Part shown: positions 57,001 to 62,297 of the stretch, piece after piece
How the letters are laid out: each line of letters starts with the position of its first letter
Numbering within the stretch: the stretch's first letter is position 1
Source: Escherichia coli
Lineage (GTDB): Bacteria; Pseudomonadota; Gammaproteobacteria; Enterobacterales; Enterobacteriaceae
DNA length: 62,297 nt
NCBI RefSeq assembly: GCF_024298765.1
Contig: NZ_CP101213.1
Direction: 5' to 3' (one strand)
Made by a program: the position numbers

Positions 57001-60000
57001 GACCTTAGCGGCGTTCGTCGCCGCTGTGGATTCAACAATGGTTGTTACTTTCTCAAGAAATTCTGAAACAATGTTCATAGCTTAGTCCTTCTGGCAGATG
57101 AAGAGTTCACCAGAGGCACTAATATTTGGCTTCAGCTTAATTACCAGGTCTGTGCCGAAAAAAATTGCTTCTCCAATTTTTTGGAAATTTAATGTGGATT
57201 CTTCTTTATTGTAACTATAAACGTTGTGGGTCGCTGTCGATGTTTTGGTTTTACGTGGTGTAAACGCTTTTTTAATGATGTAATCGAGAGCGTGGCTGTT
57301 ATGAGATGGTAAAGTGATTAAATCGTCGTTTTTTTTCATAATGTAGTTCTGATTTTTGAGGTTGAAGATAATTGTCGGTCAATGCTTTTGATTTTTTTTC
57401 GTATCTCAATTGGATTCGCCTCAGATAAGTTAGCAATGGATAAAGCCAGTTCGATTTGTAAAATTTTCCTTGTTTCGATGAGATTGATTTTTACTTGTGG
57501 TATATCACGGAAGACACCACAGCCGGTAATTGCTTTTGAAACGACACGTTCTGTATTCGCTATGCTTTTCTTTACTGTTCGAGGGGGGACATAACGTGCA
57601 CGGCGAAGTTTTCTCAGATTAGCTTTTGCTTGAGTCATATTTGTATGCCATGAATAAATAAATGCTTTCTTCAAAGCCTGAATAAGCATAAACCAGTAAT
57701 ATGGTGGCTAAAGGCAAAGAAAAGGTGAAATGAATAACGGCATTCAGAACTGAACCGGTTAATGTATATAAGACAAACGGTGCTGAAAGTATGAAAGCAC
57801 CCAGCAGGAAAGAAAAAACATTGCACGCCATTTTTAATAAAAATATTTTTATTAGGTGATGTTTTTTTCTGTACATTTCATCGTATCCTTCAGGGGGCTG
57901 TCACCTTCTCACGTTGTTGCTTCCATCGCGAGAGCTTCAACAAGTTCATTGATACAAGTCCGTTCTGCCGGAACTTCCCGACCTGTAACCGGGTCGAAAA
58001 CGATATGCTCATTTTCAACGTAACGCAGGCGATCGTAGATTTTTTGACGAGCTTTTATCTTAATCACGTCCAGCTCTGCATGTTTTAACTTTTCTCGTCT
58101 ATCGCCGATGAAAAATATTATCCATATGACAGCCATGATAATTGCCGTACAGGGGAGCATGTAGCTTAATACTTTTACAGCCACAGCAAATGTATCTTTG
58201 GCCCTTCCTGCTGCTGATTCAAGGATAAAAAAAGCTACAGTTATTATTATGACTGTGTATGTCTCGTATTTATTTACACCTCTAATACCAAATTTGCGTA
58301 ATGTGGCTTTAGTTACAATCTCTGAAAGAGAAACACCTTCATTTGCGTTTCGCATTGAATTTTCCTCATACTATTCCTGTGACACTTAACACCATCAATA
58401 AAATATGTAATGCAGTAATGTTTTTTAGCGTTTTTTTGTAGGCTTCAATAAAATCCTTATCCAGAAGTCTGATAATAAAAATACATAGTGCATTCATCGC
58501 TGCTCCTGTAAGCGGAATTAACAACGAAAGATGCATGATTTATTCCTTGTTTTCACTCTTGTCTTCGATGGTCATTACTTTAAGAGTTATTCCTTGCATG
58601 TCTGTAACAATAACTCTTGTTCCCGCAGGGTAGTTTTCATTGTGTAACGTCTCAACAGGCCAGAATGTATCACCAATGAGTAATTGCCCCTTGCCGTTAA
58701 CAATATCGTCACTGAGCGTAAATTCTTTTCCTTTAAAACGTGAATGCCCTGTGTTCACCAGGAGAGTGTCTAATTTCTTATGTTTTTTGTCATAGAAGAA
58801 CTTAATTATCGACGCCAGTATGCTGATTGACGCAAAGAAACATATATTGGCTTCTTGTGATATCGGAAGAAAAAAGCCCATAATGGCGCTTGATAATGCA
58901 CCAAGACTGATTAAGAGTAACCATCCCGTTCCGGTTATAATTTCAAGTGCAATACACAGAAGAAACAGTGTAAACCATAACATGGCTAATCTCCATGATA
59001 AAAGGCGGAGAGTGAATAAAGATAATAAAGGTGGTAACAAACGGCTAATACATTAAACAACAGACATAAACCGAAGAATATGCCATTCAAACTCCATATA
59101 AGCAGAGGCATCGTTGCTATCATGAGCGTCGAAGATCCCCAGTCTAGCCATCTTGGAAATATGGAGTCGATAATATGCTGTAGTCTTTCTCTTTCATTAT
59201 TATCTCTTGTGATAGAAAGGAGAAAAAACCATGTTGACATGGGAATTATATACAAAATGATAATGATGCATGTATAAGTTTTCATTTTAATGGCTCACTC
59301 AGGAGTTAAGATAAGGACGGTGATTAAAATAATATTGTCACCGTCCGCTATCTTTTTTAAGACAAATATTGTTGAGCCTGTTTCATATCAACTTTGGGAG
59401 TATCCTGTGATACGTTTTTTAGCAGTTCACTGATACCTGCAACCGAACTCACCAGGCTACTTGAATCAAGCGGCATCATAACCAGTTTACTGTTTGATGC
59501 TGTGCCAATTGCCTGGAGTGCTTCAGTGTATTTCTGCGCAATAAAGTAATTAACAGACTGAACATCACCTTCAGCGATTGCATCCGACACCAGTTTTGTT
59601 GCGCGAGCTTCCGCTTCTGCCTGACGTTCGCGTGCTTCAGACTGAAGAAATGCTGATTGCCGTTCCCCTTCCGCTTTCAGTATTTGAGACTGTTTTTCCC
59701 CTTCTGCCTTCAGAATTTCTGACTGGCGTATACCTTCCGCTTCAAGAATCCGGGCACGCTTAGTTCGTTCCGCTTTCATTTGCGCGTTCATCGCTTCAGT
59801 CAGTTCTTTTGGTGGTTTAACATCCCGAATTTCAATACGTGTGACCTTAATTCCCCACGGGTCAGTCGCATAATCGACAACCGTTAACAGTTTAGAATTG
59901 ATGCTGTCACGTTGAGAAAGCATATCGTCGAGATTCATTCCACCAACGACAGTTCGGATATTGGTCATAACAAGATTTGAAATAGCTGATGCAAGATTAT

Positions 60001-62297
60001 CGACTTCATAAGCTGCCTTCGCTGCATCAATGACCTGGACAAAACAAACAGCATCGATAGTTACGTTTGCATTGTCTTTCGAAATAACTTCCTGTTTAGG
60101 AATATCCAGGACGGTTTCCATCATGTTGATCCGTTGACCTATGCGGTCCATAAACGGGATCAGGAAGTGAAGACCGGGGGAAAGCGTATGGGTATATTTA
60201 CCAAAGCGTTCCACTGTCCAGGCATTACCTTGCGGCACGATTTTGACGGCAGATTTAACGAATATCAGCGCGACTAAAATTAATAAGAGTAACGGAATAG
60301 ATGTAACTATTGGCGTAATTATAGCGTCAATCATGATTAATCCTCTCCCCATTCATCACAATATGCTTCAACCGGAGTTTTTCCTGCTTCATAATCACCG
60401 CGCCATGCTTCCGCATCGGCGGCATTTCCACCGCGTAACTCTGCGTAATCCATTAATAGCTCGTGCCATTCTTCAAATGTTACGGTTTGTTTAGTGGAAC
60501 CAAAATCAGCCATATGTATTTCCTGCATTTTGTGGAGGTATCTCTTTGCAAATGAAATCTGAAATATGAACATCAACAGAAAAACACTTTCCTGCTTCTT
60601 TTTCTTTTGAGAAGTTTTTTCTGCATTCTTCAGCGGTCATAGGGAAGTCGCTGTAATGAGTCCATTTCACGGGGCCACCACCTGGTTTTTTGATGGTTGC
60701 GTTTATTTGGTACTTAGGCATTCAAAAATACCTCCACTCGATCACCTGTCTTTCTTGAACACATCCAGCGGCGCAGTTCTGTAAAACTATCCTGGATCTC
60801 ACAACGGGTACTTTTCATTGTGACAGTTGGTATATTGTCGTAGCTGGCATATGCAATCTCTTTTTTGGGTGTGCGCAATATGCCTTTGTCAATATCAAGA
60901 ATCCTGAACGCGCTAATTCTTCTTTTGTGCTCGTTAAATAGTGTTCGTTTAGTTGCTGTTATCTGCTTCTGTGCTTCCTGGTAAATGTAGGTAAGCACAT
61001 CATAAGATTGTTGCTGTGTAATAAGGAAATTACGGCTAACATCCGTTGTTGTGAGCGTTTTATTATTTCTTAATCCCCAATAGGCCACGATGATATAGAG
61101 TGGATATCCTTTCAAATCTGCCACACATTCAGGAATGACAGGATTAATTTTTAACTTACGCGCCATATTTTCTCCCGGTTGTTTGTCTGAAATAGAAACA
61201 TCCCCGGAATACAGCGTCATAAGCTAATTATGAAAAGTTGCAGCCACTCACTACAGGCTCTTTATCTGATTGTTCATCATCATGCATAGCTAAACCCCCT
61301 TACCTGGAGTGGAGACTGGCAAATCTGGTGTACTTCTGCGTTGCAGCCTGTACGACTTGCTCAGGGAGAGAGTGAGTGAGATTAACTCAACGCGAGTTCA
61401 CCAAATAAGGGGGTTTAAGTATGCAGAATGATATTTGCGGATAAAGAGTCGTTACCTGTGTAGATGGCGCGGCACGTCACTCTGTTACGTAGCCCGTTGC
61501 TGACAGATGCCAGCGGTGCTTGAAATGCACGAATAATAACCTCCTTATGCCAGGGCTTTAGGCAATGACCGCTGTCCGGGGTTGTTAAAGAGCATGAGAT
61601 GACAAGCGTTCTAACGGGCGTCAAAGAGTGCTCATTTTCCAGGCAATGAGCACAAAAAACGCGATGAACGAGCTTTTTACAATCATCTGGATAGTATTGT
61701 GTGTGCGACATTTAAAACCTGTCAATGCCACAAGAGCGATCTAATGATCTGGATAACATCTAAAAAACAGAATAATATTCTGTTTGTTAAATGATGTACG
61801 ATCTAAAAATCTAGATAATACTGTTTGTGTGGTTTATTCGATCGTGTGAGTGGGTGTATGCAGTCAAAAAAACTTTTTTGAATATACAAAATTCTGAATT
61901 TCTGATTTTGTAAGGTTTTGTATGGGGAACGTCAGTAAAGAAGGGGCTTCAGTAGCTGTTCTGAAAACGATTTTGAAGCAGTCAGAGATGTGTGCTGAAT
62001 CAAAAAGGAAACGAGCCAGGCTTGAACATCGTTGATCGATTGCGCCCATGCTGCTAAATTTGCAGGCAAGTTTTCCGCGATTTGTAAATGCAGAAAACGA
62101 GGTGCTGAAATTTTGTTCAAGAACGTAAATTTCAGATAAAGAAAACCCCCGTAATCTCGTGTTTTCCAGGCAGCGAAGATTAGCGGGGGCTGACATCAAG
62201 GCAGAGCCTTGAGCTTATTTATTTCAGGTATGCTTGTTACCTGAAATGGAGTTTAATTCCATGAGAAGGAAATATCAACTCTTACAGTGCAAGCTAA

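Follow-up and report, generated by a model that had tools for sequence, protein, structure and literature searches.

An SPFH-NfeD gene pair of the QmcA/YbbJ type at the head of the transfer genes of IncI2 plasmids

Why should a conjugative plasmid carry, at the edge of its transfer region, a pair of membrane-protein genes of a type that its host already has on the chromosome? This question is raised by NZ_CP101213.1, a sequence of 62,297 nucleotides (nt) from Escherichia coli (RefSeq assembly GCF_024298765.1; hereafter, the window) which is a complete IncI2 plasmid with the colistin resistance gene mcr-1. Its minus strand contains a gene for an SPFH (Band 7) protein, related to the inner-membrane protein QmcA, and a gene for an NfeD-type partner, related to YbbJ. 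From what is known of these families and from synteny, the most likely role of the pair, a diverged paralogue of QmcA-YbbJ, is to organise or buffer the inner membrane for the transfer apparatus, a reading that we hold about as firmly as we doubt it.

The interest of the locus is twofold: (i) for the QmcA-YbbJ cages of Gram-negative bacteria, a structure is in hand, and deletion of the chromosomal genes gives no clear phenotype; and (ii) IncI2 plasmids are the main vehicles of mcr-1, and the pair is fixed in their backbone. Its location at the head of the transfer genes provides a concrete setting for a phenotype or a client of such a cage, namely the assembly or tolerance of the conjugative type IV secretion system (T4SS) together with the type IVb pilus. 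If the pair cuts the cost of transfer or lifts its efficiency, it would be part of the reason why IncI2 resistance plasmids spread well. In public records, the SPFH and NfeD proteins are already annotated by family name; what is new is the recurrent placement of the pair at the head of transfer operons, as well as the variable slot between the two genes. The elements that make up the locus are the following, in their order along the minus strand:

59357..60334, minus strand: SPFH/Band-7 protein of 325 amino acids (aa), a QmcA paralogue (Pfam Band_7, PDB 8z5g_A).
59308..59354, minus strand: RNA stem-loop directly 3' of the SPFH stop codon (folding and conservation).
58986..59285, minus strand: ORF99, an open reading frame (ORF) of 99 codons for a putative small helical membrane protein (open frame, hydropathy).
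58540..58983, minus strand: short-form NfeD protein of 147 aa, distant YbbJ homologue (PF01957, PDB 8z5g_B).

The SPFH protein begins with a membrane anchor, which is followed by the SPFH domain, by coiled coils and, at the C-terminus, by a cap region. The Pfam family Band_7 (PF01145) matches residues 37-207 of the 331-aa frame (E 2.9e-40; 138.6 bits versus a cut-off of 23.6), and the hydrophobic stretch seen by hydropathy corresponds to residues 1-36. The alignment with QmcA (PDB 8z5g_A; E 2.3e-146) covers about 295 residues (20-314) and runs almost without gaps from the SPFH domain across the coiled coil with its EAEG repeats and into the C-terminal region. On account of its identity of about 75-78% to QmcA, for which a cage has been solved, the plasmid protein would be expected to assemble into a ring or cage oligomer as well.

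Regarding the partner, PF01957 is recognised in the predicted C-terminal NfeD/OB domain with 35.2 bits (cut-off 29.1), and residues 2-139 (about 138 residues, the C-terminal domain included) align with YbbJ (PDB 8z5g_B; E 4e-15) at an identity of about 30%. Its hydrophobic segments are located in residues 1-65. No second Pfam domain was found, so this is a short-form NfeD (YbbJ/YuaF type) which does not have a ClpP-like protease domain. Its gene starts at the ATG at 58983, which has a GGAG upstream and lies 2 nt past the ORF99 stop codon; the open frame reaches 59040, where a TTG codon was rejected as the start. The SPFH and NfeD genes lie on the same strand, 373 nt apart in the window and only 61-72 nt apart in those IncI2 plasmids that have no ORF99, a proximity which points to a shared operon.

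An earlier note on this DNA had described a stomatin/HflC-like SPFH protein with a coiled-coil tail, an NfeD-type partner with a C-terminal OB domain and a small membrane protein between them, all in tandem at the edge of the transfer region of a conjugative plasmid. These observations hold: the middle frame does encode hydrophobic segments, and the block follows a CaiF/GrlA-like gene beside repA and precedes the VirB6, VirB5, Eex and pil genes. The limits that it proposed, 58540-60352, need a correction at one end. The ORFs are indeed found there, and the full SPFH frame spans 59357-60352 (331 aa), but the most likely start of the gene is the ATG at 60334 (MIDAIIT...), given that this codon lies 6 nt past the Shine-Dalgarno sequence GGAGAGGA and directly behind the stop codon of the upstream gene; the ATG at 60352 does not have a Shine-Dalgarno-type signal. 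The protein of 325 aa thus obtained is the common form, being present in 785 assembled sequences. The RefSeq/PGAP and GenBank coding sequences start at an ATA codon at 60310, which leads to a protein of 317 aa. Two aspects go beyond that note: the middle frame is a variable, repeatedly lost accessory, and the SPFH protein is a close paralogue of QmcA which resides together with the host copy.

This closeness to QmcA does not amount to orthology. The plasmid protein shows 72-80% identity to the QmcA proteins of Escherichia, Salmonella, Klebsiella, Pantoea, Dickeya, Xenorhabdus and others, being about equidistant from all of them, while the chromosomal proteins are nearer to one another than to it (90-99% identity in the case of the true orthologues from E. 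coli, Salmonella, Klebsiella and Citrobacter). In a rough neighbour-joining tree, the IncI2 SPFH proteins form their own early branch. Neither the chromosomal position (fetAB-qmcA-ybbJ-cueR) nor identity at the level of orthologues was found, the values against Enterobacterales QmcA proteins all being 72-78%. Judged by its sequence and location, the plasmid protein is a paralogue or xenologue of QmcA, and the pair as a whole appears as an old paralogue or xenologue of qmcA-ybbJ and not as a recent copy of the host genes.

The distribution of the pair is that of a backbone component. Among plasmid records, 518 contain the SPFH-NfeD region, 517 VirB5/6 and 527 the IncI2 repA at at least 90% identity; the pair is also found in the prototype plasmid R721 (NC_002525.1) and in diverged IncI2-like metagenome contigs. 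For the SPFH gene, the ratio of non-synonymous to synonymous divergence (dN/dS) is 0.03-0.15, and it remains at 0.03 against the IncI2-like relative L007, in which synonymous divergence is saturated (dS >3). For the NfeD gene, the more divergent comparisons give a dN/dS of 0.08-0.26, the value of 0.45 for the near-identical L003 pair coming from very few changes. The pair is, in short, part of the core IncI2 backbone, and both genes are under purifying selection.

The SPFH-NfeD region is also more conserved than the adjoining T4SS genes. For VirB5/VirB6 (55433-57078), about 517 IncI2 plasmids fall into identity classes of at least 99% (227 plasmids), 90-95% (170) and 80-90% (115); for the SPFH-NfeD region (57800-61300), 337 records show at least 99% identity and 164 are at 95-99%. 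Since VirB5/6 are split into such classes and the SPFH-NfeD region is more uniform, the surface components of the T4SS are the more mosaic part.

Between the two genes, two further elements are encountered. The first is a hairpin directly behind the SPFH stop codon, with a stem of about 16 base pairs (AAGAUAG-C-GGACGGUGA, 14-nt loop, UCACCGUCC-UUAUCUU). Its free energy is -21.9 kcal/mol (z-score -3.6), and none of 200 shuffled sequences folds equally well. It was spotted by eye and then folded, the automated terminator scan having overlooked it owing to the 14-nt loop. All the IncI2 variants examined retain the hairpin, whether they have ORF99 as allele A, as allele B or not at all; at this site, L007/L013, an IncI2-like relative, shows a hairpin that differs from it. 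It is a candidate attenuator or partial terminator, or else an mRNA stabiliser, which would uncouple the expression of the SPFH gene from that of the downstream genes.

The second element is ORF99, in whose product residues 3-26 and 53-89 form hydrophobic segments. In plasmids with allele A, it is unannotated in both GenBank and RefSeq, leaving a 373-bp annotation gap. Several observations speak for a real gene: (i) a second allele, B, present in about 50 records, retains the full 99-codon frame without gaps at 55% protein and 73% DNA identity to allele A; (ii) this frame is the only one open in both alleles, and it survives in just 2.3% of simulations of random divergence of the same extent; and (iii) no variation is seen in 53 residues or in the hydrophobic pattern, and dN/dS between the alleles is 0.5. 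The flanks of both alleles are 97-99.7% identical, and the divergent patch extends from directly after the hairpin to about 20 nt before the ORF99 stop codon. Because dS is 0.58 between the alleles and only 0.02-0.07 in the flanking SPFH and NfeD genes, and in view of the borders of this patch, ORF99 has been swapped as a cassette through recombination.

The frame is also lost repeatedly. About one sixth of IncI2 plasmids have no ORF99 match (518 records with the region versus 430 with ORF99). Plasmid pHN1122-1 retains just the last few nucleotides of allele B, which denotes a deletion; the junction is cleaner in two other plasmids, another one has internal deletions and a frameshift, and several frameshifted fragments occur in assemblies. 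In one IncI2-like relative, the slot is occupied by a protein of 120 aa, unrelated to ORF99, which has several cysteines and a single anchor at its N-terminus; in another relative, the slot is empty. No relatives of ORF99 were recognised beyond IncI2: a word-indexed search returned 2 matches, and an HMMER profile search of 1.84 billion representatives returned 7, of which six are variants or fragments of ORF99 from IncI2 and the seventh is a weak match that was not examined. Its AlphaFold model is all-helical, with a low predicted template modelling score (pTM 0.33). The possibility that ORF99 is a former N-terminal part of NfeD was rejected, as the two are read in different frames and share no sequence similarity. 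Altogether, ORF99 is a genuine gene, though accessory, restricted to IncI2, recombining and repeatedly lost.

What might the pair do for the plasmid? Part of the answer comes from other backbones. First, a Rep3-type lineage of about 48 kb (L014-L015; assemblies of Salmonella, Yersinia, Hafnia and Enterobacter) places two small ORFs after SPFH-NfeD, with VirB1/2/3/4/5/6/8 behind them. Second, IncI-complex-like plasmids of Enterobacter and Citrobacter (L020/L021/L023) present LuxR-like and NusG-like regulators, one gene, SPFH-NfeD, TraR and type IVb pil genes. In both groups, as in IncI2, the pair is found after regulatory or small genes, before the T4SS or pilus genes and beside the replication region; unlike in IncI2, ORF99 is lacking and the SPFH and NfeD genes lie side by side. 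The NfeD proteins of the three lineages share 28-34% identity (that of the Rep3 lineage has 51% identity to chromosomal YbbJ), and the SPFH proteins do not cluster, those of the other plasmids being as far from the IncI2 protein as chromosomal QmcA, or farther. As the NfeD proteins are so diverged and the SPFH proteins do not cluster, the pairs were probably recruited separately or, failing that, maintained independently for a very long time.

A membrane role linked to transfer is favoured by the finding that, in two other backbones, diverged pairs of the QmcA/YbbJ type occupy an equivalent position. The earlier note had put forward three possible roles, which can now be separated in part: a link with the transfer apparatus or with homeostasis of the envelope gains support, since the pairs of three backbones lie between regulators and T4SS or pilus genes and since IncI2 plasmids have the pair as universally as they have the T4SS genes; the phage-related role does not (see below).

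In mechanistic terms, the genes of the pair would be expressed together with those of the T4SS and the type IVb pilus, the hairpin presumably setting the ratio of upstream to downstream expression. The product would be a cage of the QmcA-YbbJ type, in which 26 SPFH subunits together with NfeD, anchored in the inner membrane, form a cytoplasmic dome that encloses a patch of membrane. Such a cage could act as a scaffold or quality-control compartment for the many inner-membrane proteins made by the plasmid, probably in touch with FtsH, as has been reported for QmcA. ORF99 would then be a dispensable, swappable small membrane protein in the slot, possibly a client of the cage. The outcome would be a better tolerance of the donor membrane or a better assembly of the transfer apparatus, and the pair would not supply a structural subunit of the T4SS. 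Consistent with the latter, no VirB/Trb homology was detected by Pfam in SPFH, ORF99 or NfeD, which argues against their being structural subunits (VirB1-11/D4).

Several points weigh against a transfer-linked membrane cage: (i) in the searched library, no literature was found linking IncI2 with SPFH, NfeD, stomatin or Band 7; (ii) deletion of chromosomal qmcA gave no phenotype in E. coli phenotype arrays (PMC10434171), so that a plasmid phenotype may be subtle; (iii) the site that separates replication from transfer genes could be merely a tolerated location for cargo; (iv) three backbones are a small sample, and two of them, within the wider IncI complex, may share ancestry; (v) it is unlikely that a cytoplasm-facing cage of such dimensions encloses the whole inner-membrane complex of the T4SS with its ATPases; and (vi) the hairpin could terminate the first transcript, thereby separating the expression of SPFH from that of NfeD and the T4SS genes.

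A bolder version can be formulated, according to which a cage of the QmcA/YbbJ type was recruited by conjugative plasmids on each of three or more backbones as a dedicated, plasmid-supplied membrane compartment for conjugation that corrals or insulates small transfer components of the inner membrane, the gap between the genes being a swappable client slot (ORF99 allele A or B, the 120-aa protein, or nothing). We consider it improbable; if true, it would provide the first defined client and phenotype for bacterial cages of the QmcA type.

Among the other explanations, the one that survives best is that of mixed cages, in which the plasmid SPFH protein co-assembles with host QmcA, or displaces it, and the plasmid NfeD retunes the FtsH-linked turnover of membrane proteins; plasmid membrane proteins may be stabilised in this way, or the cost of cargo such as MCR-1 lowered. 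The identity to host QmcA quoted above is especially high in the C-terminal half, which comprises the oligomerising coiled coil and the cap, and the strong divergence of NfeD is what would be expected if specificity resides in the partner. Furthermore, each E. coli host already has qmcA-ybbJ, the plasmid copy being redundant unless specialised, and QmcA interacts with FtsH (PMC8656257). On the other hand, the pair predates mcr-1 on these plasmids, given its presence in R721 and in pHN1122-1, a plasmid without mcr; besides, hetero-oligomers of this kind are a prediction. Mixed cages are an unlikely answer in our judgement, and they overlap with a transfer-linked cage instead of excluding it.

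Less probable still, and indeed rather far-fetched, is a role in defence or exclusion, in which the cage restrains a membrane-damaging ORF99 (or its replacement) that is freed upon phage infection or the entry of a competing plasmid, the alleles then reflecting an arms race. The hypervariability of the slot fits this idea, as does the finding of srgK, the Salmonella qmcA orthologue, in a phage-resistance transposon sequencing (Tn-seq) screen, as reported in PMC11619404. Nevertheless, among ten proteins compared with PADLOC-DB 2.0, only one chance-level match was obtained (ORF99, E 0.008). A tblastn search of 50,697 phage records yielded just tiny host-like fragments and distant matches to jumbo phages and metagenomes; likewise, PHROGs returned for SPFH-NfeD the generic SPFH family alone, with no real phage or satellite homologues. 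The phage-related function suggested by the earlier note thus gains no support. In addition, the plasmids without ORF99 (about one sixth) keep SPFH-NfeD intact and under purifying selection, and hence the conserved unit works without the supposed effector; the dN/dS of ORF99, for its part, is not above 1.

Finally, that a chromosomal qmcA-ybbJ fragment simply hitch-hiked onto the ancestral plasmid and has no plasmid-specific role is very improbable and to a large degree refuted by the selection and distribution data: such captures do occur (for instance, an IS26-flanked ybbN-fetAB-qmcA-ybbJ-cueR block on a Providencia plasmid), but this pair is found in practically every IncI2 plasmid as well as in diverged relatives, has been under strong purifying selection over saturated synonymous divergence, lacks flanking chromosomal genes, is tightly packed in a regulator-led operon and occupies the same position in other backbones.

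The surroundings of the pair are those of a typical IncI2 plasmid. The 3.5 kb around SPFH-NfeD are 100% identical in many IncI2 plasmids of about 60 kb from E. coli, Salmonella and Shigella; these are typed as MOBP, MPF_T and conjugative, and the majority carry mcr-1. The window is collinear with pMCR4D31-3 (CP085520.1; window coordinate = record coordinate + 2), and its gene order is repA, maintenance genes, relaxase, mcr-1, shufflon, type IVb pilus genes and VirB-type T4SS genes, with the SPFH-NfeD block occupying the final stretch ahead of repA. Read along the minus strand, the CaiF/GrlA-like regulator beside repA is followed by SPFH/NfeD and then by VirB6/VirB5/Eex and the pil genes, without any change of strand; the pair stands, therefore, at the 5' start of a co-directional block of transfer genes of about 30 kb. 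The genes next to it are:

60714..61220, minus strand: CaiF/GrlA-family regulator, first gene of the leftward block (Pfam CaiF_GrlA, E 5e-10).
60506..60721, minus strand: gene for a DUF1187 small protein (Pfam DUF1187, E 4e-41; phrog_5753 match).
60337..60513, minus strand: hypothetical gene of 58 codons (phrog_519 match, E 7e-21).
58366..58536, minus strand: two-helix membrane ORF of 56 codons, separated from the NfeD gene by 3 nt.

From the regulator through the DUF1187 and 58-codon genes to SPFH, stop and start codons overlap or abut. The regulator, whose start in RefSeq is 61166, has a stop codon that overlaps the start of the DUF1187 gene; the latter overlaps each of its neighbours by 8 nt, and the 58-codon gene stops 2 nt ahead of the SPFH ATG. 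The DUF1187 and 58-codon genes (60337-60721, minus strand) belong to prophage-type families and are translationally chained to the regulator and to the SPFH gene. The regulator itself is interrupted by IS1 in two natural IncI2 mcr-1 plasmids, NZ_MW373507.1 (L024; 3669-4351, equivalent to about 60.9-61.0 kb in the window) and NZ_CP080130.1, which are thus natural regulator mutants. When its orthologue in pHNSHP45 (orf00039) was deleted, growth and fitness were little affected (PMC8053102).

Packing is equally tight in the series formed by ORF99, NfeD, the 56-codon membrane ORF and a 148-codon membrane ORF. Downstream of ORF99, the block comprises NfeD, these two ORFs, small ORFs, VirB6, VirB5, an EexN-family gene, the remaining T4SS genes and pil; by Pfam, a TrbL/VirB6 domain is found in 56083-57078 and a VirB5-like (T4SS) domain in 55433-56086. 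The 56-codon ORF accompanies the IncI2-type NfeD everywhere, with 96% identity in relatives L003-L005 and 84% in L006. The 148-codon ORF (57909-58355, minus strand), two genes past NfeD, is a second variable spot: its counterparts in other IncI2 plasmids have 217-231 aa and about 52% identity over the C-terminal part, with neighbours at at least 96%, and one of them is annotated as 'yhbB protein' in one record. As for regulatory signals, the promoter and terminator scan yielded no more sites than in shuffled sequence, and in 57800-62297 the only Rfam match was to a plastid group II intron model (59056-59284, plus strand), which was judged to be due to chance (32.6 bits versus a gathering score of 140).

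The comparison with known systems helps to delimit the pair. SPFH proteins are also encoded on other large conjugative plasmids of Enterobacterales, those of the IncT type (Rts1-like) or MOBH, whose hosts are Providencia, Serratia and Morganella. There, the gene shows 37-41% identity to a QmcA-like query (the SPFH protein of the Rep3 lineage) and is found near ssb, not at the T4SS genes; no NfeD partner was detected by Pfam. In the IncT plasmid pCHS4.1-2 (L017; 6938-7861) and in L018 (6941-7861), this distant SPFH gene lies some 1-2 kb upstream of ssb, among hypotheticals, in a setting that resembles a leading region. Being distant, near ssb and devoid of a detectable NfeD partner, the IncT-type gene was rejected as the same module. 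On a Providencia rettgeri plasmid (L016, AP025671.1; 6454-13594), the ybbN-fetAB-qmcA-ybbJ-cueR block lies next to IS26 copies and tet(D); it was likewise discarded as a parallel to IncI2, since it is a plain IS26-flanked capture of chromosomal genes.

With HflK/HflC-FtsH, the plasmid pair has in common the SPFH superfamily and, by prediction, the cage architecture, but the match is weak (TIGR01933 hflK, 82 bits versus a cut-off of 159; PDB 7vhp, 9e-12). HflK/C, unlike the plasmid pair, face the periplasm, form a hetero-oligomer and do not have an NfeD partner. Membership of the plasmid SPFH protein in HflK/C was rejected, as its scores are far under the equivalog cut-offs.

The closest known system is E. 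coli QmcA-YbbJ (PDB 8z5g), a solved, closed 26-mer cage as cited in PMC12478178, in which both proteins have the same domain plan as their plasmid counterparts and the genes follow the same order, SPFH and then NfeD. QmcA is located in the inner membrane, with a predicted orientation towards the cytoplasm, and forms 10-15 punctate foci per cell (PMC10434171). The Salmonella orthologous pair, according to PMC11619404, is regulated by SdiA. The differences are clear: (i) the plasmid pair lies outside the fetAB-qmcA-ybbJ-cueR context; (ii) its SPFH protein has a longer N-terminus than QmcA, together with a C-terminal tail; and (iii) chromosomal qmcA and ybbJ overlap by 4 nt, whereas the plasmid genes are split by a conserved hairpin and, usually, ORF99. 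In Agrobacterium, a QmcA/NfeD pair and components of a VirB-type T4SS are both enriched in detergent-resistant membranes (PMC8656257).

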